This document shows positions 20,184 through 34,894 of a stretch of 64,000 nucleotides of DNA, in pieces. Location: contig JAZTXY010000086.1 in assembly GCA_045636665.1 (NCBI GenBank), forward strand, positions 2,974-66,973, written 5' to 3'. The notes beneath the pieces were generated by a model that did not search any database, was not told where the DNA came from, and saw only the letters and a list, made by a program, of their open reading frames with translations. This stretch comes from Eubacteriales bacterium (GTDB lineage: Bacteria; Bacillota; Clostridia; Oscillospirales; CAG-382). The position numbers and the translations under genes are program-made. The stretch's first letter is position 1; the number at the start of each line of letters is the position of its first letter.

Positions 20184-22253
20184 ATGAAAAAAAGAGAGCA
20201 AGGCATTCTTACGGTTGAGGCGTCTATCGTTTTGACGCTAATGCTGTTTTTCATATTGTTTTTGTTTAGCTTTGGCCGTGTATACCGCGCACAGAATTTA
20301 GTCAGCCACGCATCGTTGCAATCAGCGGATGCAATAGCATTGGAATCTTATTTGAGAGAAACTGCTCTTCGGTCGGATGCCGAGAAAATCTCGTATCTTG
20401 CTTCGTACATTACGGAATCTACCGCAATCAGTGCCGACGGGCTCGAAAGTCTTAGGTCTGCAAATCTTCCCAAAATAGCAAAGGAAAAATTTATATCCGC
20501 GATCGCAAGCTCGGAAGCCGAGGCTGATAAAAAGCTAAAAAGTATGGGCGTGAAGGATGGACTTGCGGGGATTGATTTTTCCGAGTGTAAAATGGATCTT
20601 GGAAGTGATGACGTAATTGTCGCAATTACATATACACTTGAAATGCAATTTCCTGTTTTTGGTTTTGATGACATAACCGTTACCAAGGTTGCGAAGGCCA
20701 AAACGTTTGGCGAAATATTGTTCGAGGTTTCTACTCGACCCAACAACCCCGGATGGGGATCCACAAGCGGCGACGATAAGGTTACGCACGGTTCTTCCGT
20801 AGTGATCACCGCAACGCCTAATTACGGATATAAATTTGTCAGTTGGAATGACGGTGTGACCGATAATCCCAGAACCGTTACCGTAACCGATGCGCATCAG
20901 TACGTTGCAATTTTCGAAAAGGATCAGTTCGGTGTCAATTTAGGAAAAACGGTTACTTACGATGCAAGCTGTGCCGGAATCGAGCATATAAATTACGGCA
21001 CCGTTACGGGCGCAGGGAATTATGCGTATATGGACAACGCGACCATAACTGCAGTTCCCGAAGCAAATTACACCTTTGTCGGTTGGGATGATAATGGTGA
21101 TGGGATTGCGGATAACACAAGTCCTACAAGAATGATTACCATAGATAAGACGTATAATTTTAAGGCAATTTTCAAACCCGTCACTTATAAAGTTACCGTA
21201 AAATCGAATGATAACTCATACGGCAGTGCGCAAGCTTTTCAAGGAATAAAAAAAGGCGACACTATTGAAGCTGAGTATGGTAGCAGAGTTCAGCTTATAG
21301 CTACGACAAAAGATTCGGTAAGATATCTTTTCAGTAAGTGGAGTAACAACAACACGCAACCATCTGCAACGGTAATAGTAGAGGGAGATGTTGCGTATGA
21401 GGCAATTTTCATAACAAATACATATACCGTTACGTTTTATAACGGTGGTTCGGCGGTTTTCACTACAAACGTAATTCGCGGCAGTTCCGTTAACGGGTCG
21501 AAATCTGTCATCGCATCAAATATGCCCTCTATTCCGGTGAGAAACGGTGCAATATTTGATAAATGGACGTATAGCGGAGGCACCTTTACTGCAACGACCG
21601 TAGTTAATAGCGACCTAAACGTATATGCTTCTTGGAAGTACAACGTTATTCTTGATGCAAACGGCGGTTCTATTTGGAGCGCGCCGAGCAAGACTTTTAG
21701 TATCCCTGACGGCGGTATCTTTGATTTTTCGGCATATATACCCAGCAGAAACGGCTTTGCATTTAACGGTTGGTACTGTGACGGTATTAAATACGCTGAC
21801 AACAGAACTATTAATTCAGCCGCAACTGTTGTCGCATCATGGACATGCAAGCATAGGTATGACAATGGTGTGACAATGTACGAGCCTATTTCCGGTACGA
21901 GCGTAGGATGCAAGAACAGCGCGATTACGTACAGATGCGCGGGTTGTTTTGATGAGTATGTTGTGCAGGGTGAAGGCGCTTGCGTTTTCAAAGGCTGGTG
22001 CGGCACTTGGCATCCGTGTAGTTGGTATACTTATTGCACTTCCGGCTCTACTCATACTTGGAATGGTTACTCTTGTATAACTTGTATTTACTGTGGCCAA
22101 TGCGAGAATCCGGTGTATCGCAAGAGTGGAGGCAAGGATATATATGTTTCTTATTATGCATATTGTAAGACTCACAACGGACATCTTTTGTGGAATCCTG
22201 CAATAAACGCCTTTGAGGAGCGAGTAAAAAAATCAGCATGGCCTCATTCGTAG
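20184..22253 (+). CDS. TadE-like pseudopilin fused to about 6 InlB-B/Flg_new-type repeats and a Cys-rich C-terminal module (paralogue of 16291-17673)
   Basis: N-terminus KREQG/ILTVEASIVLTLMLFFILF. Repeats include YKFVSWNDGVTDNPRTVTV, YTFVGWDDNGDG, YLFSKWSNNNTQ, AIFDKWTYSGG and FAFNGWYCDGIKY. The 135-aa Cys-rich tail starts at TGC 21846 and includes CAGC, CITC and CGQC. Confidence 0.7.
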   Translation: MKKREQGILTVEASIVLTLMLFFILFLFSFGRVYRAQNLVSHASLQSADAIALESYLRETALRSDAEKISYLASYITESTAISADGLESLRSANLPKIAKEKFISAIASSEAEADKKLKSMGVKDGLAGIDFSECKMDLGSDDVIVAITYTLEMQFPVFGFDDITVTKVAKAKTFGEILFEVSTRPNNPGWGSTSGDDKVTHGSSVVITATPNYGYKFVSWNDGVTDNPRTVTVTDAHQYVAIFEKDQFGVNLGKTVTYDASCAGIEHINYGTVTGAGNYAYMDNATITAVPEANYTFVGWDDNGDGIADNTSPTRMITIDKTYNFKAIFKPVTYKVTVKSNDNSYGSAQAFQGIKKGDTIEAEYGSRVQLIATTKDSVRYLFSKWSNNNTQPSATVIVEGDVAYEAIFITNTYTVTFYNGGSAVFTTNVIRGSSVNGSKSVIASNMPSIPVRNGAIFDKWTYSGGTFTATTVVNSDLNVYASWKYNVILDANGGSIWSAPSKTFSIPDGGIFDFSAYIPSRNGFAFNGWYCDGIKYADNRTINSAATVVASWTCKHRYDNGVTMYEPISGTSVGCKNSAITYRCAGCFDEYVVQGEGACVFKGWCGTWHPCSWYTYCTSGSTHTWNGYSCITCIYCGQCENPVYRKSGGKDIYVSYYAYCKTHNGHLLWNPAINAFEERVKKSAWPHS

Positions 22254-22271
22254 GTCGTTATTGGAGGATCT

Positions 22272-22982
22272 ATGAAAAAAAGGAGTATTAATATTATTGC
22301 AATACTTGTCGCGGTGTTGGTTATAGCAATAGCGATTGTTATTATAGTATCATTAGGTCAAGATTCTACCGATTCGTCAGAATCGTCATATACGGCTCAT
22401 GGCCGACAAGATGACTATTTGGGCTTTGCTGCGCTTAGCTTAAATTCGGTTGGCGAGTTTAACGAGTTCGCTAAGAAGGGCGAGTACGAGTGTTTCTTGG
22501 CTTCGGATGGGTCTGGCGGATCTATATATGGAGTTCCGATTCTTGGAGAAGATGCTGTTATAACATATTATTTCGACAAACAGGGAAACACGACTGATTT
22601 TCAAGCATTTTATTATCTTAATGCCGATGTTTCGGCGGTAGAAAATTTTAGCGTAAAGCCCTTGACGACACAAGAGTTAGCCGACGGTATAAACGGTGCA
22701 GTTGCACAGTTTTGCACAATGTTTGAATATAACATCGTGCCCACGCTTTATTTGTCGAATACAGACGGAACGTTTGTTGAGGTAGAAGACGATTCCGCTT
22801 TTCAACGTATCGCGGAAGGCGGTTCAAGTTTGACGTTCAGCATCAGAGACAAGGAAGGATATTTTTGGAAGTTATCAGTATCAGCTACAGGTGAATTGAT
22901 ATCTGCCAATATCAGTAAGTATTTTGATAAAGAAAAAACCAAGAATTATGTTGCAAATATCTCACTATATGAAGAGGGGTAA
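22272..22982 (+). CDS. Bitopic membrane protein, paralogue of 17726-18403
   Basis: N-terminal TM helix INIIAILVAVLVIAIAIVIIV. Same size and same position (directly after a Cys-tailed pseudopilin gene) as its paralogue. Confidence 0.5.
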   Translation: MKKRSINIIAILVAVLVIAIAIVIIVSLGQDSTDSSESSYTAHGRQDDYLGFAALSLNSVGEFNEFAKKGEYECFLASDGSGGSIYGVPILGEDAVITYYFDKQGNTTDFQAFYYLNADVSAVENFSVKPLTTQELADGINGAVAQFCTMFEYNIVPTLYLSNTDGTFVEVEDDSAFQRIAEGGSSLTFSIRDKEGYFWKLSVSATGELISANISKYFDKEKTKNYVANISLYEEG

Positions 22983-22987: not shown

Positions 22988-24712
22988 ATGACTTTTACTT
23001 ATGAAAATCAAGGCGCGATCACATATTTGGTGTGTGAGCTTGAGCCGAGCGAACAGTTGGACGGCTTGACCTTAGGGATGCTTACCAACAATCACATTTC
23101 GGGTTTTGCGCCCGTGCTGTATACCGAAATGAACGGTCAGAGATATTTGAAATATAATATTTCTGCAAAGGTTACAGCGGAACAATTCTTTAGCGGTGCG
23201 ATGAACAAGCAAAGAGCGCTGACAGCCTTTCGAAACATTCTTAGTGCAATCTGCTCTGCAGACGATTATATGATCGATCTTAACAGCTTCGTTGTCGATT
23301 CCGATCATATCTATTTGAACGTTTCAAGCTGTGAAACCGCCATGATCTGCGTTCCTGTAATTACCGATAAGGATATTAATGCAGAGGTAGCCGCGTTGTT
23401 CAAGAAGATTATGTTTTCCACGCAGTTTGACAACAGCGAGGACGTATCCTATATTACTCAGCTGATTACATACGTTAACAGCGGCGCGTCGTTTACAGTG
23501 TACGGATTAAATGATTTGGTAACAAATCTTCAATCAGGAAGAGTCGATGCACCTCAGACAGCGCCTCAGGCGGTTCCCTCGGTCGTTCCTCAAGCGGCGC
23601 CTCAGCCGGCGCAACAGGCGGCTTCTGCACCTGCTGTGCAGCAGATTCCGGTTCAGCCCGTTCAACAGTCTGCGCCTCCTGCTTCCCCGTTTGATTCAAC
23701 TATTTCTATTGACGATATGCCTGCAATGATGGCTAAAAAGCAACAAACTCAGCCGTCTGCGCAGATCCCCGTAACACCTATTAAGCCTGCACCTCAACCT
23801 CAGGTTGTACCGCAGGGCAATATGGTTCCTCCGATTCAACCCGCGGCACAGGGTAAACCTCCGGTACAGAGCTTCGGCGCTCCTATTCAACCGAAGCCCC
23901 AGCAACCCGTGGTTCCTCCTCAGCCGTCTGCACCTAAGGGACCCAGCTTTGCAATTCCCGGTCAACCCTCGGGTGTAGGTAACGTTCCCGTTCCGCCCGC
24001 ACCTCCTGCCGCTCAAAAGAAGCAAGCTGCAAAGGCAGAGCCTTCGGGCGAAAAGAAAATGTCTTTGTTTGGTCTTCTCGCGCATTACAGTAAGGAAAAT
24101 GCCGAGCTGTATAAGAAGCAAAAGGAAGAAGGAAAAGCAAAGAAAGCCGCCGCTAATTCACAACCTATACAAAAGCCTATTAACGGTCCCGGACAAATAC
24201 CCGGACAAATGCCTGGACAAATGCCCGGACAAATGCCCGGTCAGCCGCCTATAAGCTCTTCGCCTACGGGCACTCCCGTGCAACAGCAGTACGCGCAGCC
24301 GCAGTTCCAGCCTCCCGTTCGACCCGTTCCCGTGCAGAACAGCTTTAACGAAACAACCGTGCTGAGCCCCTCGATGATGGGCGGGGAAACAACGGTTCTC
24401 AGTGCTGATGCGGGCAGACCTAATCCTACACTGACTCGCATTAAAACAGGCGAGAGAATCAGCATTAACAAGCCTGTATTCCGTATAGGCAAGGAAAAGA
24501 GCTATGTGGACTACTTTATCGGCGACAACACTGCCATTAGCCGCAGTCATGCGAACGTTCACACCGATAACGGTGAATACTTTATAGAAGACACCAACTC
24601 TACCAATCACACCTACGTAAACGGAAAATTGATCAACAGCAACGAAAAGGTGAAGCTTGTAAGCGGCGATAAGATTCGCCTTGCAAACGAGGATTTTACT
24701 TTCTCAATTTAA
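22988..24712 (+). CDS. Cytoplasmic FHA-domain protein: conserved N-domain, about 270-aa Pro/Gln-rich linker, C-terminal FHA domain
   Basis: C-terminal FHA signature FRIGKEKSYVDYFIGDNTAISRSHANVH...STNHTYVNG. No TM helix. The N-terminal domain of about 175 aa resembles that of the 33422 product. Confidence 0.8.
   Translation: MTFTYENQGAITYLVCELEPSEQLDGLTLGMLTNNHISGFAPVLYTEMNGQRYLKYNISAKVTAEQFFSGAMNKQRALTAFRNILSAICSADDYMIDLNSFVVDSDHIYLNVSSCETAMICVPVITDKDINAEVAALFKKIMFSTQFDNSEDVSYITQLITYVNSGASFTVYGLNDLVTNLQSGRVDAPQTAPQAVPSVVPQAAPQPAQQAASAPAVQQIPVQPVQQSAPPASPFDSTISIDDMPAMMAKKQQTQPSAQIPVTPIKPAPQPQVVPQGNMVPPIQPAAQGKPPVQSFGAPIQPKPQQPVVPPQPSAPKGPSFAIPGQPSGVGNVPVPPAPPAAQKKQAAKAEPSGEKKMSLFGLLAHYSKENAELYKKQKEEGKAKKAAANSQPIQKPINGPGQIPGQMPGQMPGQMPGQPPISSSPTGTPVQQQYAQPQFQPPVRPVPVQNSFNETTVLSPSMMGGETTVLSADAGRPNPTLTRIKTGERISINKPVFRIGKEKSYVDYFIGDNTAISRSHANVHTDNGEYFIEDTNSTNHTYVNGKLINSNEKVKLVSGDKIRLANEDFTFSI
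24188..24245 (+). repeat. In-frame 12-bp tandem repeat (cccggacaaatg, about 4.8 copies) encoding PGQ(I/M)PGQMPGQMPGQMPGQ
   Basis: Read directly from 24188-24245, inside the Pro/Gln-rich linker of the FHA protein. Confidence 0.8.
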
Positions 24713-24786
24713 GGATTGCTTATTACAAGTATAATGACGAAAAAAGCGGTATATGATAGAATTTTTCATATGAAAGGGTGATATTA

Positions 24787-27700
24787 TTGGTAGTTAATCT
24801 TATTAAAGCGAAACAGCTTTTTAGCTTAACCCTTCCTGATAAGATCAAGGGGCAGTATTGGCTATCTGACTTTGATGATGCGGGCGAATACAGAAAGCTC
24901 ATAAGTATTGAAGCGGTAGACGGTAAGTGGGTCGTTAAAAGCAACAAGTGTGTATCGGTTCTTGATGCCCAAAACAAAGTGGTTGCTCAGGCTGTAATTG
25001 AGCCGATGAGCTTTTTGAGCATTAAATATTATAATTCTGATGAGCGCATTATTCTTTATGCAGAGGCGCTTGAGCAGTCAAGACAAAGCTTCTCCAAAAT
25101 AGTAATGCTTGAACCGGGCACTTTAACGATTGGACGTAACAACAGCAATAATTTGTTTTTTGCAAATAAATTTGTTTCGGGAAATCATGCCCAACTTACC
25201 TTCGACGGTAACAATTGGGCAATTTATGACCGACAGAGCACCAACGGTACCTACGTAAATGGATACCGTGTGGAGGCGACGAATCTTTGCCCCGGCGATA
25301 TGATCTATATAATGGGTTTGAAAATCGTTATCGGTAGCAATTATTTTGCAATTAATAACCCTGACGGATTGCTTACATTGCAAGCAAATAATCTTGCCAA
25401 TTATCATCCGCAGATTGTTGAGCATATCGAACGAGAATATGAAACACCTGAGGACAAACACTTTTTCAGATCTCCCCGTTTCTATCGCGAGATCGAGCAT
25501 GCGGTTATAAAGATAGATCCGCCGCCTCAAATTCAAAAGCAGGAAACAGTTCCTCTTGCGTTGATGCTCGGACCGTCTATCACGATGGGTATGACCTCTA
25601 TGAGCACTGCGATACTCTCGGTTTCCAACGTTATAAATAACGGCGGAGATATTTCACAAGCGCTGCCGACTCTTTTGATGTCGGTCAGTATGCTTTTGGG
25701 TACAGTGCTGTGGCCTGTTCTCACTAAAAAATACGAGAAGAAGCAAAGAATTAAGAACGAACAGAAGCGCCAAAAAAAGTATCTTGCTTATTTGGACGAG
25801 GTCAGAGATGAGATAAAACAAAAGTGCAAGGAGCAAAGTGATATCCTGGCAGAGAATTTTGTTGATCCCAACGAGTGTGCTTCCCGCATATATGAGGAAA
25901 AAGCAAATTTATGGGAAAGAACAAACACGCATAGCGATTTTCTCAGTCTTCGATTGGGTTTGGGCGATCTTCCTCTTGATGCTGAGGTTACTTGCCCCGA
26001 AAAGAAGTTCACTATGGACGAGGATAATTTGCAAGATGCGATGCTTTCATTAGGCAATGAGCCCAAGGTTCTCAAAAACGTGCCTATCAGCATTTCTTTG
26101 ATTGAAGATTTTATTTCGGGTGTATACGGAGAAAAGTCGGAAATCGTTAATTTCATCAAAATGCTTCTTTTGCAGATTGTAACGCTTCATAGCTACGATG
26201 AGCTAAAGGTGGTTTTGATTGCCGATAATTCTACCGGGTGTTGGGATTTTGCGAGATTTATTCCTCATTTTTGGGATGATGAAAAGAAAATGCGTTTTAT
26301 CGCCACCACTCCGGATGAGGTAAAAGAGTTATCTGCATACATAGAAAACAACATACTTAGCCGCGGAGATAAGGAAAACCGAGATTTTTCTGAATTTTCG
26401 CCCTATTACGTGATCGTTGTAGCTGACAAGGCGCTTTCCGAGAGCAGTGAAGCTTTGGGACAACTTTTGAAATTCAAGGGCAACAGTGGCTGCAGCTTAA
26501 TCTATGGGGCAGGCGAATTGAAGGATCTGCCTAAAGAAGTATCCTCGGTTATGTATGTCGGCGGCAACAAGTCCTGCATTTTCGACAGAGCAGACACGTC
26601 CGGTAATACTATTCCGTTTATTCCCGATACGGTCAACGAGAGCGTTATTGACAACATAGCCGAAAAGCTCGCAAATATCGAGCTCGACCTTGCGGGTCAG
26701 CGCTTTGCGTTGCCTAATATGATCACTTTTATGGAAATGTTCAACGTCGGTAAGATCGAGCACTTGAATTGCTTGACACGTTGGAAGGAAAATAATCCCA
26801 CAAAGACGTTGCAAACTCCTGTCGGTGTAGATTCTTACGGCGGAACGTTTTCTTTGGACCTTCACGAAAAATTCCACGGTCCTCACGGCTTGGTAGCAGG
26901 TATGACCGGTTCGGGTAAGTCTGAATTTATAATAACGTATATTCTGTCTCTCGCGGTTAACTATCATCCCGATGAAGTAGCCTTTATCTTAATCGACTAC
27001 AAAGGCGGCGGTTTGACAGGTGCGTTCGAAGATGATGAGCGCGGTATCAAGCTTCCTCACCTTGCAGGTACGATCACAAACCTTGATGGTGCGGCAGTTA
27101 AGAGATCGCTTATCTCGATACAAAGCGAGCTTCGCCGCCGTCAGGCGATATTCAACGAGGCCCGTAAGATATCCAACGAGGGCACGATGGATATTTACAA
27201 GTATCAACAGCTCTACCGCGATAAGGTGGTTTCTGAGCCGCTTCCGCATTTGTTTATTATTTCGGACGAATTTGCCGAGCTTAAAACACAACAGCCCGAA
27301 TTTATGGAACAGCTTATCAGTGCGGCTCGTATCGGCCGAAGCCTTGGCGTTCACTTGATACTCGCGACGCAGAAGCCTAGTGGTGTAGTTGACGATCAGA
27401 TTTGGAGTAACAGTAAATTCAGGGTTTGTCTTAAGGTTCAGGAAAAGGCGGATAGCCAGGATATGATCAAGTGCCCCGATGCTGCAGAGCTTTCGCAAAC
27501 AGGCCGCTTTTATTTACAAGTTGGCTTTAACGAATTGTTTGCATTGGGTCAATCCGCTTGGTGCGGTGCTGAATACATACCTACAGATACAGTTGAAAAG
27601 TCTGTTGATAACAGCATTCAGATCGTTGATACTCTCGGCCACGTTCTTATGAACGTTAAGCCTGCCAAGAAGGTTACAAATACAGGAAAAAAAGTAAAGC

Positions 27701-29370
27701 AGATCGTTTCTATCGTCAAATATCTGTCGGATCTCGCGAACGAAGAAAGTATTTCCGTTCGTCCGCTTTGGTTGCCTCCTATCGCGGCGCGTATTTTTGT
27801 AGATGAGCTTGAGGAAAAGTACGGTACAACCTCTAAGGGTACCACGCTCTGCCCTGTTGTCGGTGAATATGACGATCCGTTCAATCAAAAGCAGGGCGTC
27901 TTGACTGTTCCGTTTTCTGCAGAGGGCAACTGCCTCGTGTATGGTGCTACCGGTAATGGTAAAACCACAATGCTCACTACAATTGCATATTCGCTAATTA
28001 AAAATCATACAGCGGACGAGCTTAACCTTTACATTATGGACTATGGCTCAGAAACGTTGAAGGTTTTCGAAAAAGCTCCTCAGGTGGGCGGCTTTATGGC
28101 TTCCTCGGACACGGAAAAGACTATTAACTTCTTCAAAATGCTACACAAAGAGATTGAATACCGTAAGAATCTTTTCTCCGAATACGGCGGCGATTATGCG
28201 GGTTATTGCAAGAACAGCGGCAAGACAATTCCCAATATAGTTGTTCTTATCAATAATTACGCCGGCTTTGCAGAGCAGTATGAGGACCTGATCGAGTCGT
28301 TTGCTCTATTGACAAGAGACGGCGTAAAGTACGGCATTTACTTTGTTGTGACAGCAAGTAATACCAATGCTATCCGTTACGTTATTGCTCAGAACTTTAA
28401 AATGACGATGACTATGCAGCTTAATGACGAATCCGATTATGCTGTAGTTGTCGGCAAAACCGACGGATTGGTTCCCTCAAAGTATAAAGGCAGAGGCCTT
28501 GTTGCCCTTGACAGAGTGTATGAGTTCCAAACCGCAAATTGTAGCGATGCAGAAGATACGTTTGATTTCCTTAGCCGTTATTGTGCGGGACTTAGGGAAA
28601 AGGCAACGTCTTTTGCAAGAAGGATACCCATTCTTCCCAATATTGTTAAGCTTGCCGATGTAGAAAGCAATCTGTCGGATCTTAAGAGCGTTCCTGTTGG
28701 TATCGGCAAAAAATCGCTCAATGCAGCAACCTGCAATATATTCGGCAAAGTTGCGATTCCCGTGGCTGCTCAAGAAATACATCAGACTGCAAGCTTTATG
28801 GAAGAGTGGCTCACGGTGCTTAGCAAGCTGACGAGAGTTGTTTACGTTGACGCTGAGCAAATTCTTAATGCGGATAAGATTTCAGGCGCAGAGCTTGTAA
28901 GTGATAGCTATGAGGCATACGTTCATACGTTGTTTGCCGAAATGGTGAACCGTAACAACACGTATAAAGAGGCTAATCTCGACGTAGAGTCGCTTGAATC
29001 CTTTGAACGCAGAGTTATCGTTCTTGTCGGTTACAAGAGATTTTTCAGCAAGCTAACACCGGACGGTCAGGAAAAGATGCGTCTTGTCCTCTTGAAGGCA
29101 GAATCGATCTACAAGCTTCACTTTGTTATTGTAGATGCAGTTTCCGATTTTGGATCCTACAATTATGACGACTGGTTTAAGCGTCAAATCACGGGTGCGG
29201 ACGGAATTTGGGTCGGCGACGGAATTGCGGATCAGTATATGCTCAAGATAAACAAGATTACAAACGAGCTGTATGAGGAAATCGGCGACGAATACGGTTA
29301 CGTGCTTAACAGAAACAAGCCTACGCTCGTGAAGTTGCTTTCTTCTGTGGAGGAGGATGAAGAGTCGTGA
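24787..29370 (+). CDS. essC: EssC/YukB-like FtsK/SpoIIIE-family T7SS ATPase with an N-terminal FHA domain
   Basis: FHA motif LTIGRNN...VSGNHAQL...STNGTYVNG. Two TM helices follow (LALMLGPSITMGMT..., LPTLLMSVSMLLGTVLWPVL). P-loops GMTGSGKSEF (with FIISDEFAELK Walker B) and GATGNGKTTM, plus a degenerate third domain. Start is TTG 24787, 6 nt after aagggtg; the ORF-track GTG 24778 is an alternative. Confidence 0.9.
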   Translation: MVVNLIKAKQLFSLTLPDKIKGQYWLSDFDDAGEYRKLISIEAVDGKWVVKSNKCVSVLDAQNKVVAQAVIEPMSFLSIKYYNSDERIILYAEALEQSRQSFSKIVMLEPGTLTIGRNNSNNLFFANKFVSGNHAQLTFDGNNWAIYDRQSTNGTYVNGYRVEATNLCPGDMIYIMGLKIVIGSNYFAINNPDGLLTLQANNLANYHPQIVEHIEREYETPEDKHFFRSPRFYREIEHAVIKIDPPPQIQKQETVPLALMLGPSITMGMTSMSTAILSVSNVINNGGDISQALPTLLMSVSMLLGTVLWPVLTKKYEKKQRIKNEQKRQKKYLAYLDEVRDEIKQKCKEQSDILAENFVDPNECASRIYEEKANLWERTNTHSDFLSLRLGLGDLPLDAEVTCPEKKFTMDEDNLQDAMLSLGNEPKVLKNVPISISLIEDFISGVYGEKSEIVNFIKMLLLQIVTLHSYDELKVVLIADNSTGCWDFARFIPHFWDDEKKMRFIATTPDEVKELSAYIENNILSRGDKENRDFSEFSPYYVIVVADKALSESSEALGQLLKFKGNSGCSLIYGAGELKDLPKEVSSVMYVGGNKSCIFDRADTSGNTIPFIPDTVNESVIDNIAEKLANIELDLAGQRFALPNMITFMEMFNVGKIEHLNCLTRWKENNPTKTLQTPVGVDSYGGTFSLDLHEKFHGPHGLVAGMTGSGKSEFIITYILSLAVNYHPDEVAFILIDYKGGGLTGAFEDDERGIKLPHLAGTITNLDGAAVKRSLISIQSELRRRQAIFNEARKISNEGTMDIYKYQQLYRDKVVSEPLPHLFIISDEFAELKTQQPEFMEQLISAARIGRSLGVHLILATQKPSGVVDDQIWSNSKFRVCLKVQEKADSQDMIKCPDAAELSQTGRFYLQVGFNELFALGQSAWCGAEYIPTDTVEKSVDNSIQIVDTLGHVLMNVKPAKKVTNTGKKVKQIVSIVKYLSDLANEESISVRPLWLPPIAARIFVDELEEKYGTTSKGTTLCPVVGEYDDPFNQKQGVLTVPFSAEGNCLVYGATGNGKTTMLTTIAYSLIKNHTADELNLYIMDYGSETLKVFEKAPQVGGFMASSDTEKTINFFKMLHKEIEYRKNLFSEYGGDYAGYCKNSGKTIPNIVVLINNYAGFAEQYEDLIESFALLTRDGVKYGIYFVVTASNTNAIRYVIAQNFKMTMTMQLNDESDYAVVVGKTDGLVPSKYKGRGLVALDRVYEFQTANCSDAEDTFDFLSRYCAGLREKATSFARRIPILPNIVKLADVESNLSDLKSVPVGIGKKSLNAATCNIFGKVAIPVAAQEIHQTASFMEEWLTVLSKLTRVVYVDAEQILNADKISGAELVSDSYEAYVHTLFAEMVNRNNTYKEANLDVESLESFERRVIVLVGYKRFFSKLTPDGQEKMRLVLLKAESIYKLHFVIVDAVSDFGSYNYDDWFKRQITGADGIWVGDGIADQYMLKINKITNELYEEIGDEYGYVLNRNKPTLVKLLSSVEEDEES

Positions 29371-29618
29371 AAAAGGTATTAGTTGAGGTATATGTGCCTG
29401 TTATTGATGCTCGATATGACGTCTTCGTTCCGAGCACGTCACAAGTATCTGAAATTTTAGAGCTTTTGAAAAAAGCAGTTGCAGAGCTTTCGGGCGGACG
29501 TTTTACTCCGTCAAGTGAAACTGCACTGTGCTACCGCGAAAGCGGAGCAATCATCAACGTTAACATGACGGTTTGTGAGCTGGGTATACACAACGGCTCA
29601 AAGCTCATGTTGATATAA
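29367..29618 (+). CDS. esaB: YukD/EsaB-family ubiquitin-like (beta-grasp) T7SS protein
   Basis: 83 aa. KVLVEVYVPVIDARYDVFVPSTSQVSEILELL...GSKLMLI fits the YukD pattern. GTGA overlap with the essC stop, and RBS gaggagga upstream. Confidence 0.8.
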   Translation: MKKVLVEVYVPVIDARYDVFVPSTSQVSEILELLKKAVAELSGGRFTPSSETALCYRESGAIINVNMTVCELGIHNGSKLMLI

Positions 29619-29638
29619 AAAATAAGGAGGTCATGAAA

Positions 29639-29941
29639 ATGGCAAGAAACATCGAGGTAACACCCGAACAATTGGAATCTACAGCCGGAAGAATCGAGGG
29701 TTTAGCTGCTGATTACAAAACACAGTATGATCAGCTTTACAGCGAAACCAATGCGATGGCTTCTACTTGGAACGGTAAGGACAATTTGGCATTTACCGAT
29801 CAGATCGCAGGCTTCAAGGATGACTTTGAAAAGATGCATAATCTTATGATTCAGTATGCTGATTTTCTCAGAAAGAGCGCGAAAGCATACCGTGACACTC
29901 AGGATACTGTAGTTGCTGAAGCAAAGAAGTTGGTAAACTAA
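29639..29941 (+). CDS. esxA: WXG100-family protein (EsxA-like)
   Basis: About 100 aa, helix-turn-helix length, W-N-G motif (MASTWNGKDNLAF). RBS aaggagg lies 8 nt upstream of ATG 29639; the ORF-track ATG 29633 is only 2 nt from the RBS. Confidence 0.85.
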   Translation: MARNIEVTPEQLESTAGRIEGLAADYKTQYDQLYSETNAMASTWNGKDNLAFTDQIAGFKDDFEKMHNLMIQYADFLRKSAKAYRDTQDTVVAEAKKLVN

Positions 29942-29958
29942 TAGGGAGGAAATGAAAA

Positions 29959-30258
29959 ATGGCTGATAGCATTAAGATTTCAACACAGGTTCTTACAGAT
30001 ACTGCTCAAAAGGTCCGTAACTGCAATAATGCAATGGACGCAAAGCTTGCAGATATCAATAAAAATATGAATGATCTGGAAGCAACCTGGAAAAGCGATG
30101 CAGCAAATGACATTCGTGCTGCTATGAACGCACTCAAACCTAAGTTTGAACAATACAAGAATGTAATCGAATCCTACGCAAAGTTCCTCGTAAATACTGC
30201 TCAGAGCTACGAATCTACCGAAAGTGCTGTGCAGACTAACGCAAGCGCATTCAAATAA
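29959..30258 (+). CDS. WXG100-superfamily partner protein (EsxB-like; WKS instead of WXG)
   Basis: 99 aa with the same helical-hairpin length. The central motif is LEATWKSDAAN. The C-terminal YESTE gives a YxxxE pattern. RBS gggagga upstream. Confidence 0.7.
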   Translation: MADSIKISTQVLTDTAQKVRNCNNAMDAKLADINKNMNDLEATWKSDAANDIRAAMNALKPKFEQYKNVIESYAKFLVNTAQSYESTESAVQTNASAFK

Positions 30259-30271
30259 TGTTATGTTTTGT

Positions 30272-30296
30272 AGGTGGGTGTACAGAACACCCACCT
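30272..30296 (+). terminator. Short GC-rich hairpin after the WXG100 pair (possible partial terminator)
   Basis: aggtgggtg / cacccacct with 7-nt loop tacagaa. No U-tract. Confidence 0.3.
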
Positions 30297-30413
30297 GCCT
30301 AAAATTGAAAACAATGGGCGAGAAGGCCTTTTATATAAGTCTTGTTTAAGCGAGAAAGCATAATAAAACATACGATTGTAGTATTTTAGAATTTTAAAAT
30401 TTGAGGTGAAGAA

Positions 30414-32735
30414 ATGAAAAACTTCAAACGCGCATTATGTATGGTCTTGTCTTTGTTTTTTGTGTTACAACTGTTTGTCGGATGTTCTTCCGAGCAGACG
30501 GACGAAACCATCTATTTGACAAAAGGCGAGTTTTTTGCTTACTTTGTATACGAAAATGAGATGTCCTCAGAAAAGTATACAGCAGAAGAAATTTTTAACT
30601 CCTATGACGGTGCTATAGAAGCAGATGTAATTGTGGAGTGGGGATATCTTCCTGAAGAATTAGCGAAAAATGATTTAGAAGATCCTGTGACCAAAGAAAT
30701 TGTGGTAATGGCTTGTGCGAACTCGACTTTCGAATTGAAGAAGGGTAACACTGCCGATATTAAGGATGCGGGCTTATTGGAGAATCCGCAACTTATTGCC
30801 GATGCCTATGCCAGTGGATTTTTTGAACTGGAAAACGGGTATTTTGACGGTGCAGAAAAAATGTCCTTTGCTGATTGCGAAAAGGTGATGGAGAAGGCGA
30901 AGGAGTATATGGCCGGTTTCCATTACGAAGCAAACAAGGAAATCACAGAAATTGCTGAAGGGGTGCTCGAACAGGACACCACCGACTATAAAGAGGGCGA
31001 TATTGTTATCGAAATTATTCCGGCGGATGCACAGGAAGAGAAATCGATTGCCAGCACAGGAAATGCAGAGCTAAAACCTTCGACAATGGCATCGGTTGAT
31101 TCTGTTGAGAAATCTACGATTAATTTAGCGAATGGGGCTCCTGATTTGGGTTTGGGAAACCAAGGTACTGGTTTGCCCACACAGACACCTAAAGGGTTTA
31201 TCGCTACTATTGCCAAAAAAACTTTCGAAAAACAATTGGGTAATCCCAAACTTGGTGACGTCGTTGTAGTAAAGGCGTTCGAAATCATTGGTCAGCCTAT
31301 AACTCAAACCGGTGAGGTTATGGGCATTCTGATGGAGAAAAAGTTGATTGGAGATAAGTACACTTGCATCTTTGAATATCCTGCAAGTTTTGAACAAGCG
31401 GTTGAAAAGAAAAATGTGAAGCAGGGCAATGGTTCTGGTATTGATAAGGCAACCTTTGTAGAAGAAAAAACCGAGGTAGCGGGATGGTCATTAGAGTTTG
31501 ACGTGACCGGAAGTTCCATTAAAGTATCTGCTAAAAAAGACTTCAAGTCCTACGAAACCGGAAGAAAACAGGATTGGCAGAATGCTACAAAAACTGTTAC
31601 GGCAACTGCAGACCTGGAAATGAGCAATTTCAATCTTGACGTAAAAAATCTAAAGAGTTTTGCGAATAAAAAGGGTACTGGATTCATCAAGGTTACTTGC
31701 GATACAAATACAGGATTTTCACTAAGCCAAAGCTTGCGGTATACACCGGACAGTAATAGGAATGGCAAGTTCCCATCCAACTGGAGCAATTCAAGGTGGA
31801 CAGATTCGGACGCTAAGGGCGCAAAAACTATCAAGATTGCAAGATTTAGCCCGACACTATATGGTGTGGTCACCATTGATGTGTATGTTTACATGCTGAT
31901 TACAGTGGACGGAAAAGTATCGTTCACAACGTCTATTGATGATGGCGGTGTAATGATCAGCGCTAAAGAGGGAAAGATCAGCACCCAAAAATTGGGCAAA
32001 AAGACTTCGGAATTTAGTGCCAACGTCAATTTGCGTACGCGCTTTGGTGTAGAAGCATCTTTAAAGATTTTTACTTTTATTAAGGTTGTTACTTACGATG
32101 TAGGCGCAAATTTGGATTTGCACGCTCAAGTAGATCTGTACTACGAAGATGTTTTAAGCAAGTCTGGTGTGTATGCGGATGAAGAGGGCCTTAACGAATA
32201 CAAGGAAGATGATGGAAAATTCAGTTATTGTATCGACGCTATGTTGGAACTTAGTGTCAGCGGTGAAATGAAGTCATCCGGTGTCAAGATGATCCTAGAC
32301 TATGTGAATAAGGGTAGTAGCCTTGACTTTGAACACAAAATTTGGAGTGCAGGGCTCCATTTCGAAAACGGTGCTTTTATTGATAAGTGTACTCACGGCG
32401 ACGAAAACGAGGAAGAAAAACTGGAAGAAACTGATGACGACGTAGAGTTAAGTGCGTACAAAATCTCCATGTGCGACAACACGTGTGTCGAAGTGTTGTT
32501 AAAGGCGATTCCTTCCGAAACGGCAAATCTGATGGATTCCAAAAATTCTATCACCGTAAAGAGTAAGAACAATAAAGTTGTAAAGGCCACATATAATAAA
32601 AAACGCAAAGCAATTATCTTAGAAGCTGCAGGCGAAGGTAGTACAGAAATCGTAATTACTGCCAAGAAGGGTCACCTTTGGTGGAAGAAGACGGCTACTC
32701 AAGAAATTTCTGTTACTGTAACTTCTTCAAATTGA
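30414..32735 (+). CDS. Large lipoprotein of unknown function with a C-terminal Big_2-like Ig domain
   Basis: Signal peptide plus lipobox LFVGC/SSEQ. The C-terminal ITVKSKNNKVVKATYNKKRKAIILEAAGEGSTEIVITAKKG resembles Big_2. The central beta-rich region was not recognised. Confidence 0.6.
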   Translation: MKNFKRALCMVLSLFFVLQLFVGCSSEQTDETIYLTKGEFFAYFVYENEMSSEKYTAEEIFNSYDGAIEADVIVEWGYLPEELAKNDLEDPVTKEIVVMACANSTFELKKGNTADIKDAGLLENPQLIADAYASGFFELENGYFDGAEKMSFADCEKVMEKAKEYMAGFHYEANKEITEIAEGVLEQDTTDYKEGDIVIEIIPADAQEEKSIASTGNAELKPSTMASVDSVEKSTINLANGAPDLGLGNQGTGLPTQTPKGFIATIAKKTFEKQLGNPKLGDVVVVKAFEIIGQPITQTGEVMGILMEKKLIGDKYTCIFEYPASFEQAVEKKNVKQGNGSGIDKATFVEEKTEVAGWSLEFDVTGSSIKVSAKKDFKSYETGRKQDWQNATKTVTATADLEMSNFNLDVKNLKSFANKKGTGFIKVTCDTNTGFSLSQSLRYTPDSNRNGKFPSNWSNSRWTDSDAKGAKTIKIARFSPTLYGVVTIDVYVYMLITVDGKVSFTTSIDDGGVMISAKEGKISTQKLGKKTSEFSANVNLRTRFGVEASLKIFTFIKVVTYDVGANLDLHAQVDLYYEDVLSKSGVYADEEGLNEYKEDDGKFSYCIDAMLELSVSGEMKSSGVKMILDYVNKGSSLDFEHKIWSAGLHFENGAFIDKCTHGDENEEEKLEETDDDVELSAYKISMCDNTCVEVLLKAIPSETANLMDSKNSITVKSKNNKVVKATYNKKRKAIILEAAGEGSTEIVITAKKGHLWWKKTATQEISVTVTSSN

Positions 32736-32772
32736 ACAGTAAGCAATACTGATTTCATCACACCTAATTAAG

Positions 32773-32792
32773 TTGCAATAATTCAATTGCAA
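32773..32792. repeat. Inverted repeat TTGCAAT-N6-ATTGCAA upstream of the third WXG-like gene (operator or small hairpin)
   Basis: 7-bp perfect arms at 32773-32779 and 32786-32792. Confidence 0.3.
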
Positions 32793-32825
32793 AATTTAAT
32801 TTGTGCTATTAGAGGAGGTGTTCCT

Positions 32826-33419
32826 ATGGCTATAAACGTGAGTGCAGCAAACAACCAAGCAAATCAGTTGAATGACAATGTTTCCAAATTGTTTGATGCA
32901 AAAAAGCAAATGCAAGTATACAGAGCTTCGCTTTCTGCTAATTGGCAGGGCAAGGAAGTTACTTATATATTAGATGCTATTGATAAGGTTATTTGGGATA
33001 TTGACAGCGCCATAAGAAGCTTAGAGTCTTTGAGCAATGACATAAAGTCCGTTGCCGCGCAGATCAAACGCGAAGAGGATGAGGCTGCAGCGCGCGCTGC
33101 AGCAGAACAACGCGCCGCAGAACAACGTTCGGTGGCAAGTCACAGTGCTGCGGCAAACGCTACGGTAGCACAAACAACGCAGGCAAGCTCCGCTAAACAG
33201 CAAAAAATCAATGCGGCACAAAGCGCTTACGATAACGCAAAGAAAGAATTAGACAAATTATACGATCAAAGGGATAAGCTTAATGATAAAATCAGCAAAG
33301 CCAACATTTTCAAAAAACTTACCTATTTAGATGATTCAACTGCTTTAGAAAAAGCTATAAATGCGGCAGAAGACAACGTTAAAAAGGCACAAAATGCATT
33401 AAAGGCGGCTAAGAAATAA
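32826..33419 (+). CDS. WXG100-like N-domain fused to an Ala/Gln-rich segment and a coiled-coil C-terminal extension
   Basis: SLSANWQGKEVTYILD carries a W-Q-G motif at the usual position of about 40 aa. An AAARAAAEQRAAEQR low-complexity stretch and a heptad-like K/A/D-rich tail follow. ATG 32826 sits 8 nt after gaggagg; the ORF-track TTG 32787 was rejected. Confidence 0.65.
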   Translation: MAINVSAANNQANQLNDNVSKLFDAKKQMQVYRASLSANWQGKEVTYILDAIDKVIWDIDSAIRSLESLSNDIKSVAAQIKREEDEAAARAAAEQRAAEQRSVASHSAAANATVAQTTQASSAKQQKINAAQSAYDNAKKELDKLYDQRDKLNDKISKANIFKKLTYLDDSTALEKAINAAEDNVKKAQNALKAAKK

Positions 33420-33421
33420 CT

Positions 33422-34585
33422 ATGAGTAAGTTTAAGATAGAGCGTGATGCCGGTCAGAGCTTCTTAGTTATCCAAGGGCAAAAGGGTCAACAAATCAGCG
33501 AACGGGAATATTATGCGATAAGCACAGGTCAGATTCCCGGTTTGTTGCGCGCCAATCTTGTTCGTAAAGGTAACACGTTTAAGCTGGTCTATAATATTTC
33601 CGGTTGCATTTCGCTAAGAGAATTTTTGCTTAATCCGTTGAATAAGCAATCTTTTGCAACTTTGCTGAATAACATACTCAATAATCTCAAGGCGTTGCAG
33701 AGAGCGTATTATAACTATCAGTTTATTCTGATGGATATGAATGCCGCAATGGTCAACCCGGCCTCGCAGCAGGTGAGTTTTGTGTACGTTCCCATAACCT
33801 TTTATGAAAGCGGCACAAACCTTAAGGAGTTTTTGCTTAGTATTATTCAGTGCTGTTCGTTTGCACCCGGTGAAAATACGGAATATGTTAGAGAATACAT
33901 AAGAATTCTTAACACGGGTATCAATTTTTCGGTGTTCGATCTTGAGGAGTATATCAAAAGGATACAGCTTGAAAACCGTGCTAATGACCAAGTGAAAAAG
34001 TGCTCCCGTTGCGGTACGTTGATTCAACCGAATGTAAACTTTTGTTCATCGTGCGGAATGAAGCTATCGGGGATTACTCTTGATAGCGCCTATGGCACCT
34101 ACGATCCTGCAAAGGTCGTTATAAGACCGAAGCAACAATCCGAACCGGTGCAACAGCCTATGCGTATGCAGCCTACGCAAGAATCGGGAATGAGCAATGT
34201 GAACGGAGCAAACGGAAACCGTTATTCCGAAACGGTTTCGCACAGTATTTCCGGTATCCCTCAATCCGAACCGATTATGCAGAACCCGAAAAATGCATAT
34301 ATTACACGTTGCAGAACCGGAGAGCGTATTGCAATCATGTCGTCTCAGCTACGTGTTGGCAAGGATCCGCACAACTGTGAATATTGTATTGCCGATAATT
34401 CTGCAATCAGCAGATGCCATGTAGTCATCAAGCACATGAACGGAAAATGGTATATTAACGATTTGAATTCCACTAACAAAACTTATATCAGCGATAGAGC
34501 GATACCCCCTTATACGGATATCGAGCTGTTTGACGGTTTGAGTATTAAATTAGCAAATGAGAACTTTATTTTCAATTTGTATTGA
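33422..34585 (+). CDS. Cytoplasmic FHA-domain protein with a central zinc ribbon; paralogue of 22988-24712
   Basis: Zinc ribbon CSRCGTLIQPNVNFCSSCG. C-terminal FHA motif LRVGKDPHNCEYCIADNSAISRCHVVI...STNKTYISD. The N-domain aligns by eye with the 22988 product (KLVYNISGCISLREFL vs LKYNISAKVTAEQFF; VSFVYVPI vs AMICVPV). Confidence 0.8.
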   Translation: MSKFKIERDAGQSFLVIQGQKGQQISEREYYAISTGQIPGLLRANLVRKGNTFKLVYNISGCISLREFLLNPLNKQSFATLLNNILNNLKALQRAYYNYQFILMDMNAAMVNPASQQVSFVYVPITFYESGTNLKEFLLSIIQCCSFAPGENTEYVREYIRILNTGINFSVFDLEEYIKRIQLENRANDQVKKCSRCGTLIQPNVNFCSSCGMKLSGITLDSAYGTYDPAKVVIRPKQQSEPVQQPMRMQPTQESGMSNVNGANGNRYSETVSHSISGIPQSEPIMQNPKNAYITRCRTGERIAIMSSQLRVGKDPHNCEYCIADNSAISRCHVVIKHMNGKWYINDLNSTNKTYISDRAIPPYTDIELFDGLSIKLANENFIFNLY

Positions 34586-34600: not shown

Positions 34601-34894
34601 ATGTATCCTGAGTTTATAGCAATTTACGTTATGCTGGCGGTAGTGATTGTTTTGCTGTTTGTGGCAATATTCTTCTTGCTTAAGCTGTTGAAGAATGGGC
34701 CTTCAAAGAGCGGTTCATACGTAGATATGCAACAAAATAACGCTTATTACGGTCAGCAGTATCAGCAACAGTATCAACAACCGTATCAGCAACAGTATCA
34801 GCAGCAATCGGGCGGTGTGGTTTTCTGTAAGCACTGTGCCACACAGTTTGATGCATCACAGGCGTATTGTCCTCAGTGCGGAACAAGAAGATGA
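34601..34894 (+). CDS. Small bitopic membrane protein: TM helix, Gln/Tyr-rich repeat, C-terminal zinc ribbon
   Basis: TM helix FIAIYVMLAVVIVLLFVAIFFLL. QQYQQQYQQPYQQQYQQQ is encoded by a 12-bp tandem repeat at about 34754-34808. Zinc ribbon CKHCATQFDASQAYCPQCG. Confidence 0.6.
   Translation: MYPEFIAIYVMLAVVIVLLFVAIFFLLKLLKNGPSKSGSYVDMQQNNAYYGQQYQQQYQQPYQQQYQQQSGGVVFCKHCATQFDASQAYCPQCGTRR

Follow-up and report, generated by a model that had tools for sequence, protein, structure and literature searches.

A Tad pilus operon and a T7SSe-like type VII secretion locus, with two DUF6382-FHA proteins of predicted kinase-like fold, in one gene array from gut Clostridia

We analyzed a 64,000-nt stretch of contig JAZTXY010000086.1 from an Eubacteriales bacterium (assembly GCA_045636665.1; hereafter, the window), the left part of which, from the window edge to ~36.9 kb, is taken up by a single array of co-oriented genes on the + strand, as delineated by Pfam and NCBIfam searches and hydropathy analysis (Table 1). 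The array includes a complete Tad/Flp-type pilus operon followed by genes of a type VII secretion system (T7SS), and it encodes two proteins, denoted J1 (574 aa) and J2 (387 aa), that are the main subject of this work. An earlier note on this DNA had described J1 and J2 as soluble proteins that share an N-terminal domain and carry an FHA domain at the C-terminus, separated by a Pro/Gln-rich linker in one case and a zinc ribbon in the other, and this description stands in full, down to the exact coordinates of the two open reading frames (ORFs). Both proteins match the Pfam family PF19909, DUF6382 (J1, 72.0 bits, residues 5-163; J2, 44.2 bits, residues 7-142; gathering score, 26.7 bits), and both C-termini match PF00498 (FHA). 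The N-terminal domains align in BLASTP with 21% identity over 180 aa (E=2e-7) and the FHA domains with 43% identity over 96 aa (E=2e-23), and the motif blocks originally pointed out (YNIS, MNK/LNK, NIL and CVPV/YVPI) are recovered in this alignment. The J1 linker (residues 186-455) consists of 21% Pro and 16% Gln; zinc-ribbon families of Pfam are matched by J2 residues 192-215; and a hydropathy scan shows no hydrophobic segment in either protein.

The same note had reported the lack of EsaA, EssA and EssB around EssC. Indeed, none of the ~50 ORFs scanned across the whole window matches the YukC/EssB, EssA or EsaA families of Pfam or NCBIfam, J1 and J2 have no match to PF10140 (YukC) or TIGR03926, and the transmembrane/hydropathy scan detected no large polytopic protein within 22-37 kb. 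Several membrane or wall proteins in or next to the region covered by the note had been overlooked, however, namely, the 97-aa protein, the 773-aa lipoprotein and the transmembrane-anchored 236-aa protein encoded at 22272-22982.

In the full-text literature, DUF6382 is treated by Garrett, Higginson & Palmer (microLife 2024; PMC11217815), who defined the classes T7SSc to T7SSj and whose text lists DUF6382-FHA proteins ("TsxJ", that is, TseJ, TsfJ and TsjJ) as core components of T7SSe, T7SSf and T7SSj. [quoted passage not shown] The window holds a candidate for every one of these components except TseH, most of them outside the coordinates of the earlier note. The window and the published type have in common two WXG100 proteins (non-identical in the window), a YukD-like protein, an FHA-bearing EssC with a phosphothreonine pocket, a Ser/Thr kinase, a PPM phosphatase, a giant Ig-like protein with a C-terminal transmembrane helix, a soluble DUF6382-FHA protein, a TseK with a transmembrane helix and a zinc ribbon, and the lack of EssA, EssB and EsaA.

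The individual matches are consistent with this correspondence. The window EssC scores 1037.7 bits against TIGR03928 (cut-off, 778.4 bits) and 2450 bits against the EssC of a stand-alone T7SSe locus (L081; loci of relatives carry L numbers throughout). The TseI-like protein, the translation of which runs off the window start so that the N-terminus and any signal peptide lie outside the window, shows weak Big_13 and Big_3_3 matches, ends in a transmembrane helix (residues 1577-1595 of the listed ORF) followed by KKKK, and is similar to the 1788-aa protein of L081 (phmmer, E=1e-52). The TseK-like protein comprises a transmembrane helix (residues 8-26), a Q/Y-rich stretch and a C-terminal zinc ribbon, and has homologues in two relatives (L085_98, E=2e-49; L081_77, E=1.4e-15). 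Similar CxxC...CxxC zinc ribbons are present in J2 and in this adjacent protein (34823-34888 in the latter).

There are also differences from the published T7SSe. The window encodes two DUF6382-FHA paralogues rather than one; a complete Tad operon is inserted between the kinase/phosphatase pair and EssC, placing the pair 14 kb upstream of the latter; the window kinase has ~6 predicted transmembrane helices, packed in its C-terminal 200 residues, compared with one; J2 lacks the GTTVL pair that the published TseJ fragment shares with stand-alone loci; and no TseH-like gene was recognized in the window. In relatives, TseH-like genes follow the kinase (L081_223, L088_212), and the window equivalent would fall left of the window edge.

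In the published classification, the WXG pair is limited to T7SSe and T7SSg (PMC11217815), and because the EssC of T7SSg lacks an FHA domain, the combination of a WXG pair with an FHA-bearing EssC is found in T7SSe only. Assignment to T7SSf or T7SSj, in which the J versions are membrane-anchored according to the same text, was rejected on two grounds: J1 and J2, unlike TsfJ, are devoid of transmembrane helices, and the locus carries a pair of WXG100 genes. Fig. S4 of that paper shows a TsjJ fragment that likewise looks hydrophobic. The assignment of the window rests on component content. We consider it probable that the locus is a T7SSe-class system joined head-to-tail to a Tad/Flp operon, with J1 and J2 as soluble pseudokinase-FHA adaptors; the host lineage of the composite locus is uncultured gut Clostridia. 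A known class is defined by the absence of EssA, EssB and EsaA, which is thus no reduction specific to the window. The alternative architecture without these three proteins that the earlier note had proposed therefore agrees with the published T7SSe, whereas the epithet "reduced" does not fit: since candidates for all T7SSe components except TseH are present in the window, this is a published type with membrane and wall components of its own.

Table 1 Features of the Tad-T7SS gene array and related cassettes (window positions in nt unless a locus is named; aa, amino acids).
Feature	Positions	Strand	Residues or size	Basis or detail
TseI-like giant surface protein	3..4892	+	>1630 aa	Open at left window edge; Ig-like repeats
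LytTR response regulator	5011-5721	+		Pfam Response_reg and LytTR
GHKL histidine kinase	5718-7025	+		Pfam HATPase_c_5; transmembrane scan, ~6 helices
Ser/Thr protein kinase, TseD-like	7115..8893	+		N-terminal Pkinase (Pfam, 2.2e-37), then ~6 transmembrane helices
PP2C/PPM phosphatase, TseF-like	8912..9679	+		Pfam PP2C_2, PP2C, SpoIIE
Tad/Flp-type pilus operon, complete	9695..22982	+		Pfam; synteny of relatives
TadA/CpaF ATPase	9695-10933	+		Pfam
TadZ	11070-12125	+		Pfam
TadB	12143-12997	+		Pfam
TadC	13001-13879	+		Pfam
Flp pilin	13932-14150	+	72 aa	ORF; Flp1_like annotated at matching place in L088
Prepilin peptidase	14225-14902	+		Pfam
WG-repeat protein	14913-16274	+		Pfam
Flg_new protein	16291-17673	+		Pfam
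Transmembrane protein	17726-18403	+		
DUF5702 protein	18423-20171	+		Pfam
TadE and Flg_new protein	20175-22253	+		Pfam
Transmembrane protein	22272-22982	+	236 aa	Transmembrane scan
J1 (DUF6382-FHA, Tad-module paralogue)	22988..24712	+	574 aa	Pfam, AlphaFold2, Foldseek, synteny
J1 DUF6382 domain, predicted pseudokinase fold	22988-23542	+	1-185	
J1 conserved linker helix KKMSLFGLLAHYSKENAELYKKQK	24053-24124	+	356-379	
J1 ETTVL motifs, two	24350-24364, 24386-24400	+	455-459, 467-471	
J1 FHA domain	24446-24709	+	487-574	G501-K, S518-R-S-H, N540-H
EssC/TseC ATPase	24778..29370	+	1530 aa from listed GTG start	Pfam FHA, FtsK_SpoIIIE x2
YukD/EsaB-like ubiquitin-fold protein (TseB)	29367..29618	+		Pfam YukD 27.4 bits, cut-off 27
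WXG100 protein TseA1	29633-29941	+		Pfam WXG100, 6.6e-16
WXG100 protein TseA2	29959-30258	+		Pfam WXG100, 2.1e-14
Lipoprotein	30414..32735	+	773 aa	LFVGC lipobox; sequence, signal-peptide transmembrane segment
Helical coiled-coil protein	32787..33419	+	210 aa	Directly upstream of J2; conserved
J2 (putative TseJ orthologue)	33422..34585	+	387 aa	Pfam, AlphaFold2, Foldseek FHA matches, L081 score
J2 DUF6382 domain	33422-33982	+	1-187	
J2 zinc ribbon	33995-34066	+	192-215	
J2 disordered linker without TTVL motif		+	218-288	
J2 FHA domain	34289-34582	+	290-387	G313-K, S330-R-C-H, N352-K
TseK-like protein	34601..34894	+	97 aa	Pfam zinc ribbon; transmembrane scan
Helical protein	34927-36108	+	393 aa	Gly/Ala/Val-rich hydrophobic C-terminus
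DUF4176 protein	36101-36391	+		Pfam
A24_N-domain membrane protein	36403-36879	+	158 aa	Pfam; transmembrane scan
T7SSf-like cassettes in closest J1 relatives	L001:8292-15398, L002:11675-18735, L006:11726-18707, L010:11766-18655			

The fold of the DUF6382 domain was addressed by structure prediction. A family profile search of 1.84 billion representatives yielded 6041 cluster representatives at E<=1e-3, and the AlphaFold2 model of J1 residues 1-190, built on a 120-sequence alignment, has a mean predicted local distance difference test score (pLDDT) of 93.1 and a predicted template-modeling score (pTM) of 0.88. In a Foldseek search of the PDB, the best match was TraF's N-terminal domain (TraF-N) from the type IV secretion system (T4SS) of pIP501 (8cba; E=5.9e-6, query TM-score 0.52), and the others included several chains of the Rv3910/MviN pseudokinase, among them its complex with the FHA domain of FhaA (E 1.8e-5 to 1.9e-4, 0.63-0.67), YukC/EssB of Bacillus subtilis (6z0f; E=3.6e-5, 0.52), and Pan3, PknI, PknB and eukaryotic kinases (E 2.4e-4 and weaker, 0.29-0.65). 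The first 50 matches listed are nearly all protein kinases or pseudokinases, the exceptions being TraF-N and the lipid kinase PI4KB. For full-length J2 (pLDDT 79.7), the 50 matches listed are all FHA domains, so the equivalence of the two N-terminal domains rests on Pfam, BLASTP and the identical order of secondary-structure elements. Neither protein has a Pkinase match in Pfam, and the DUF6382 family consensus shows nothing recognizable as a Gly-loop, VAIK, HRD or DFG motif. These models suggest that DUF6382 is a compact, catalytically dead kinase-like domain in the structural class of EssB/YukC, TraF-N and MviN.

The resemblance of the N-terminal domain to EssB/YukC, which the earlier note had put forward as an impression, thus holds at the level of fold, through the matches to 6z0f and TraF-N, and fails elsewhere: there is no sequence match, no YukC Pfam match, no transmembrane helix and no ectodomain. 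A sequence-level link to EssB was rejected, given that phmmer searches with J1 and J2 and an hmmsearch with DUF6382 against all PDB sequences returned FHA matches or noise, the DUF6382 profile having no match among PDB sequences, EssB and YukC entries included; because of this, the relation to EssB is one of fold only. It is highly improbable that DUF6382 is not kinase-like at all, the resemblance being a model artefact, or, conversely, that it is an active atypical kinase. The modest TM-scores, the high root-mean-square deviation (RMSD) and the absence of sequence-level support would fit the first of these possibilities, but the confidence of the J1 model is very high with five concordant models, the separate model of the 21%-identical J2 domain has the same topology, and the first 50 listed matches are almost all kinases or pseudokinases, while the family consensus without catalytic motifs speaks against an active enzyme. 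Furthermore, Foldseek hits annotated "protein kinase domain" are given for TsfJ in the supplementary table of Garrett et al. (PMC11217815); in the available text, these authors neither call TsxJ or DUF6382 a pseudokinase nor compare it with EssB. In a 2026 paper, TraF-N was described as a structural homologue of EssB/YukC in which ~195 residues form the layout also seen in the J1 model: five strands followed by one long helix, a beta-hairpin and a lobe made of helices.

We then compared the surroundings of J1 and J2 in other genomes. A J1-type profile scan of one genome per species yielded 80 loci, in which ORFs were called and searched with all window proteins, relatives' loci being viewed with 10-kb flanks. 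The hosts are Lachnospiraceae, Acutalibacteraceae, Oscillospiraceae and relatives, and the closest J1 N-terminal domain among the scanned genomes (82% identity) comes from an uncultured Acetatifactor metagenome-assembled genome. Cultivable carriers exist as well: Anaerocolumna xylanovorans DSM 12503 (L054) has the Tad-type locus, and T7SSe occurs in a Neobacillus strain. The J1-type gene follows at least two Tad genes in all loci with at least 3 kb upstream (74/74), the usual order being TadZ-TadA-TadB-TadC-...-A24-WG-Flg-DUF5702-TadE-J1. Downstream sequence of 6 kb or more is available for 61 loci; of these, only 11 have EssC downstream of J1, 48 have PP2C within 1.5 kb, and 38 encompass PP2C and the kinase without EssC, usually with a TseI-like giant gene next. 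A 44%-identical relative of J2 resides in stand-alone T7SSe loci that lack Tad genes, such as L081, where the order is EssC-YukD-WXG-WXG-Big_2 protein-212 aa-J-PP2C-kinase-223 aa (TseH)-160 aa-1788 aa (TseI)-77 aa (TseK) and the J protein scores 358 bits with J2 and 154 bits with J1. From these bit scores and the Tad synteny, it follows that J2 is apparently the orthologue of TseJ, a component of the T7SS proper, whereas J1 is a paralogue that normally closes Tad operons, that is, a Tad-module protein by ancestry. The two FHA proteins, treated as equivalent in the earlier note, are accordingly of different kinds: J2 resembles the J of stand-alone T7SSe, and J1 closes Tad operons, mostly without a nearby EssC. 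The J1 linker contains a conserved island, KKMSLFGLLAHYSKENAELYKKQK, with an LLxHYxKEN-like motif found in 82 of the 138 long J1-type representatives; this island may form a helix that binds a partner from the Tad machine or the T7SS.

With these relationships at hand, we consider it quite unlikely that the window encodes a reduced T7SS whose membrane accessory proteins EsaA, EssA and EssB are structurally replaced by the two cytoplasmic FHA paralogues acting together. The lack of matches to these three families in the window, the position of the J genes, which flank the EssC block on the same strand with J1 ending 66 nt before EssC, the EssB-like fold and the conservation of the two-J layout in relatives all fit such a scheme. 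However, J1 and J2 are soluble and therefore cannot take over envelope-spanning roles, J1 orthologues belong to Tad operons that mostly lack EssC, stand-alone T7SSe loci need only one J, and further membrane and wall components of the kind typical of T7SSe are encoded in the locus. Replacement of all membrane accessory components by the FHA proteins, as the earlier note had it, is thus not borne out, given the presence of a multi-transmembrane kinase, a PP2C phosphatase, an Ig-like transmembrane protein, a TseK-like protein and a lipoprotein.

The composite layout J1-EssC-...-J2-TseK-like-effector-DUF4176 is kept in L085, L087, L003, L005, L007 and L012-14. Four loci of the J1 clade carry another cassette after J1, T7SSf-like in composition, in which a divergent EssC is encoded together with a TadZ-like ATPase and a third DUF6382-FHA protein (Table 1). 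This third DUF6382-FHA type is very divergent, with ~350-365 aa and a Q/N-rich linker, and the EssC of its cassette scores ~530 bits. Because either a T7SSe-like or a T7SSf-like cassette is found there, the site after Tad-J1 evidently takes different T7SS types.

These observations bear on the possibility, doubtful although worth keeping in sight, that two unconnected machines, Tad plus J1 and the T7SS plus J2, happen to be adjacent, J1 being unrelated to secretion and the paralogy reflecting a common signaling toolkit. Loci with Tad, J1, PP2C and the kinase but no EssC are the majority, stand-alone T7SSe without Tad exists, and the alternation of T7SSe-like and T7SSf-like cassettes in the closest clade suggests cassette exchange; Garrett et al., too, left the Tad-T7SS adjacency in T7SSg and T7SSh unresolved. 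Weighing on the other side, the TTVL motifs, still present in J1 and the kinase, are lost from J2 of the composite clade, the site after J1 has received two different T7SS types, and Tad adjacency recurs, being reported for T7SSg and T7SSh alongside a TadZ-like TsfV in T7SSf (Garrett et al. 2024, PMC11217815). Together, the motif loss in J2, the recurrent site and the recurrent Tad adjacency hint at functional coupling. For T7SSe itself, Tad adjacency is not described in the available text of Garrett et al., and no Tad-related gene names were found in the portion of the supplement text that was searched.

Modules consisting of PP2C, Ser/Thr kinase, an 87-aa protein and a TseI-like protein (1214 aa) occur alone at L089:7285-13645 and L090:3929-10289. 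Their neighbors are housekeeping genes, and genes for DUF6382, Tad or T7SS proteins are absent from the surrounding 10 kb. The kinase, the phosphatase and the giant Ig-like protein are an independent unit, and the overall picture is modular: a portable unit of kinase, phosphatase and giant surface protein, a machine-specific J adaptor, and Tad and/or T7SS. Two further schemes were set aside. One is that a single kinase/phosphatase pair is shared by both machines, as L088 has a second PP2C-kinase-TseH-like set upstream of the TseI-like gene. The other is that EssC always follows the TseI-like gene in Tad-only loci, which is not seen within the 10-kb flanks; stand-alone T7SSe has EssC upstream of J, and the PP2C-kinase-TseI modules among housekeeping genes have no T7SS in that range. 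A window equivalent of the second set of L088 would lie beyond the left edge. The relatives also have a second kinase type (555-561 aa) that is only distantly related to the window kinase (~40-49 bits).

A short Thr-containing motif links several of these proteins. GETTVL is present in 98 of the 112 full-length J1-type representatives, with at least two copies in 71, a median of 37 residues ahead of the FHA domain, and within the window T-T-V-L is confined to J1 (at residues 456 and 468) and the juxtamembrane segment of the kinase (QGTTVLDP, residue 360). Stand-alone TseJ has two GTTVL motifs, which are visible also in the published TseJ fragment; the motif is absent from 69 J2 relatives (~41-77% identity, including the composite clade of the window) and present in 47. 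Single-pass proteins encoded after the kinase carry repeats of such motifs in L088:4132-4770 (ANETTVLGG, four times) and L081:13641-14312 (a run of TEVL/TEIL/TTVL). These repeat-bearing tails look like multivalent FHA landing pads and appear to fit the published description of TseH. The (G)ETTVL motifs are likely phospho-acceptor sites, and a pT-x-x-L ligand suits the usual +3 hydrophobic preference of bacterial FHA domains.

The predicted readers fall into two kinds. The FHA2 domain of EssC (~aa 106-188, nt 25093-25341; Pfam FHA, residues 117-178) has the canonical phosphothreonine-binding residues G119-R, S136-G-N-H and N156-G. At the same positions, the FHA domains of J1 and J2 have G-K (24488-24493 in J1, 34358-34363 in J2), S-R-x-H, and N-H or N-K, respectively, and this Gly-Lys variant suggests a different class of ligand or affinity. 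The best sequence matches of the J FHA domains are GarA and OdhI; TagH and ArnA are also among the matches to the FHA parts, the zinc ribbon and FHA part of J2 aligning to Sulfolobus ArnA with E ~1e-7.

Such matches raise the possibility, which we regard as unlikely, that the J proteins are regulatory phospho-switches like GarA and OdhI, or Fha and TagH of the type VI secretion system (T6SS), with no EssB-like scaffolding: DUF6382 would be an effector or oligomerization module, and the phosphorylated ETTVL would bind the protein's own FHA domain, switching it off or on. With a distance of ~37 aa to the FHA domain downstream, the ETTVL pair matches the geometry of the GarA ETTS motif; the top sequence matches are GarA and OdhI; the linkage to PP2C and the kinase is tight; and ArnA, to which J2 aligns, is a phospho-regulated repressor of a type IV pilus-like machine, the archaellum. 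A switch of this kind leaves unexplained both the membership of the N-terminal domain in the EssB/TraF/MviN structural class and the functional-looking pocket of the EssC FHA domain. It is not mutually exclusive with the adaptor reading that we favor, and both can hold.

Under this favored reading of J1 and J2 as pseudokinase-FHA adaptors, the membrane Ser/Thr kinase would phosphorylate the Thr of T-x-V-L motifs, and the PP2C phosphatase would remove the phosphate. The targets would be the J1 linker, at two sites, the juxtamembrane segment of the kinase and, in relatives, the TseH-like single-pass tails; the readers of the phosphothreonines would be the canonical pocket of EssC FHA2 and the J1 and J2 FHA domains with their Gly-Lys variant. 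[quoted passage not shown] A related arrangement is known for MviN, where PknB phosphorylates the pseudokinase tail and the FHA domain of FhaA is then recruited. Phosphorylation would switch T7SS assembly or activity and, through J1, the Tad machine, with J2 supplying the cytoplasmic function of EssB in this limited sense; such substitution for the cytoplasmic role of EssB by J proteins is plausible. The TseI-like and TseK-like proteins, the lipoprotein and the membrane domain of the kinase would take on the envelope-spanning roles of EsaA, EssA and the ectodomain of EssB; an envelope-spanning role was suggested for TsdI/TseI by Garrett et al. (2024, PMC11217815). J1 would do the equivalent job for the Tad ATPase or TadZ and, as it keeps the motif that J2 has lost, may also feed the T7SS in composite loci.

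Several points weigh against this reading. The fold similarity is moderate (TM-score 0.5-0.67, RMSD 4.6-8 A, ~10% identity), and the J proteins lack the transmembrane helix, the ectodomain and any sequence link of EssB. Lys replaces the phosphate-contacting Arg in 109 of 112 relatives, which makes phosphothreonine binding by the J1 and J2 FHA domains uncertain. J2 of the composite clade has lost the TTVL motifs of stand-alone TseJ, so that its wiring differs and is a guess, and the kinase module may serve other purposes, as it occurs in L089 and L090 without J, Tad or T7SS. Canonical essA, essB and esaA may exist elsewhere in the genome, their absence being established for the window. Finally, interaction, phosphorylation and secretion are all inferred from prediction and synteny.

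A more far-reaching version, which we offer as tentative and rather doubtful, is that DUF6382 is the missing EssB equivalent of the systems other than T7SSb. The pseudokinase/FHA unit would then be ancestral to Bacillota T7SS as a docking unit, soluble or differently anchored and phospho-regulated in T7SSe, T7SSf and T7SSj, and the J family with the T-x-V-L code would physically couple Tad and T7SS. Such coupling would yield a single contact-dependent apparatus under one kinase/phosphatase module, in which J1 supplies the phospho-motif lost by J2.

The remaining genes of the array have varying degrees of conservation. The lipoprotein occupies a slot after the WXG pair that is kept in T7SSe-type loci; its counterparts at the matching position in L081, L085 and L087 (798, 828 and 783 aa, respectively) contain Big_2, and similarity to the L081 protein is detectable with phmmer (E=1.8e-13). 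The coiled-coil protein encoded upstream of J2 has a homologue in L085 (L085_194, E=5e-57), and genes of similar size are found in that slot of L081 and L087. The three genes after the TseK-like gene, which are present also in L085, are probably a T7SS substrate/accessory cassette: the 393-aa protein is possibly an effector, a candidate membrane-active toxin, and the polytopic 158-aa protein, which contains only the N-terminal domain of the A24 prepilin peptidase, possibly provides immunity. The LytTR/GHKL pair, which holds the same position in L088, is probably the transcriptional input to the locus. This pair is AgrA/AgrC-like and lies between the TseI-like gene and the Ser/Thr kinase; the Tad/T7SS array may be under peptide quorum sensing through it. 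A LytTR regulator, TsiN, is listed for T7SSi by Garrett et al. (2024, PMC11217815). Outside the array and unrelated to it, a gene at 46509-50240 encodes a protein of 1243 aa that looks secreted and contains Ricin-B lectin repeats, Big_2 domains and the N-terminal beta domain of hyaluronate lyase, and is followed by a 128-aa ORF.

The architecture as such is already known and largely explained by the existing literature (Garrett et al. 2024). What our analysis adds is the composite of Tad and T7SSe with two J paralogues, along with the predicted EssB/TraF/MviN-class fold of DUF6382, the apparent descent of J1, and of some of the T7SSe components, from the Tad module, and a putative T-x-V-L motif network. 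T7SSe, T7SSf and T7SSj, which would have to assemble without EssA, EssB and EsaA, are known from comparative genomics alone; assignment of DUF6382 to this structural class leads to a concrete model of the cytoplasmic core, in which a pseudokinase would sit on EssC FHA2 under phosphothreonine control. The J1-type paralogue is the near-universal terminal gene of clostridial Tad operons associated with PP2C, a Ser/Thr kinase and a giant Ig-like protein, which suggests that part of the "T7SSe parts list" is a portable signaling module shared by pili and secretion systems and sharpens the question of why Tad genes recur beside variant T7SSs in gut Firmicutes.

Compared with better-characterized systems, the window locus combines familiar elements in a different arrangement. 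T7SSb of Staphylococcus aureus and B. subtilis employs EssB/YukC, EssA/YueC and EsaA/YueB with EssC, and none of these three was found in the scanned window ORFs; furthermore, the FHA domain of the window EssC keeps the phosphothreonine-binding residues that T7SSb EssC lacks. Like EssB/YukC, as the Foldseek match to 6z0f indicates, the DUF6382 domain is predicted to adopt a compact kinase-like fold that spans ~190-200 aa and has no catalytic motifs, and it is encoded beside an FHA-bearing EssC and YukD, the pseudokinase-FHA2 contact of YukB-YukC-YukD serving as the docking model. Unlike EssB/YukC, the J proteins lack PF10140, sequence similarity, the transmembrane helix and the extracellular domain, and DUF6382 is fused to an FHA domain of its own. 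TraF-N of the Gram-positive pIP501 T4SS, the best structural match, is a pseudokinase scaffold of the same size and element order that is likewise associated with a secretion system, but TraF is bitopic, sits in the membrane and belongs to a conjugation system that has no FHA partner.

The MviN(Rv3910)-PknB-FhaA module, with the highest TM-scores to the J1 N-terminal domain, follows a similar logic, in which a pseudokinase tail Thr is phosphorylated by a membrane kinase and read by an FHA domain. In the window proteins, by contrast, pseudokinase, phospho-motif (in J1) and FHA domain are fused in one soluble polypeptide, and, unlike MviN, GarA and OdhI, these proteins are linked to Tad and T7SS rather than to the control of the cell wall or the tricarboxylic acid cycle. 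Further parallels are PpkA/PppA/Fha-TagH of the T6SS, an analogy in threonine phosphorylation drawn also by Garrett et al. (2024, PMC11217815), and Sulfolobus ArnA. There, too, a trio of kinase, PP2C and FHA protein gates the assembly of a secretion or pilus machine, although the machines and phyla are different and Fha, TagH and ArnA have no pseudokinase domain, which the J proteins are predicted to combine with their FHA reader.

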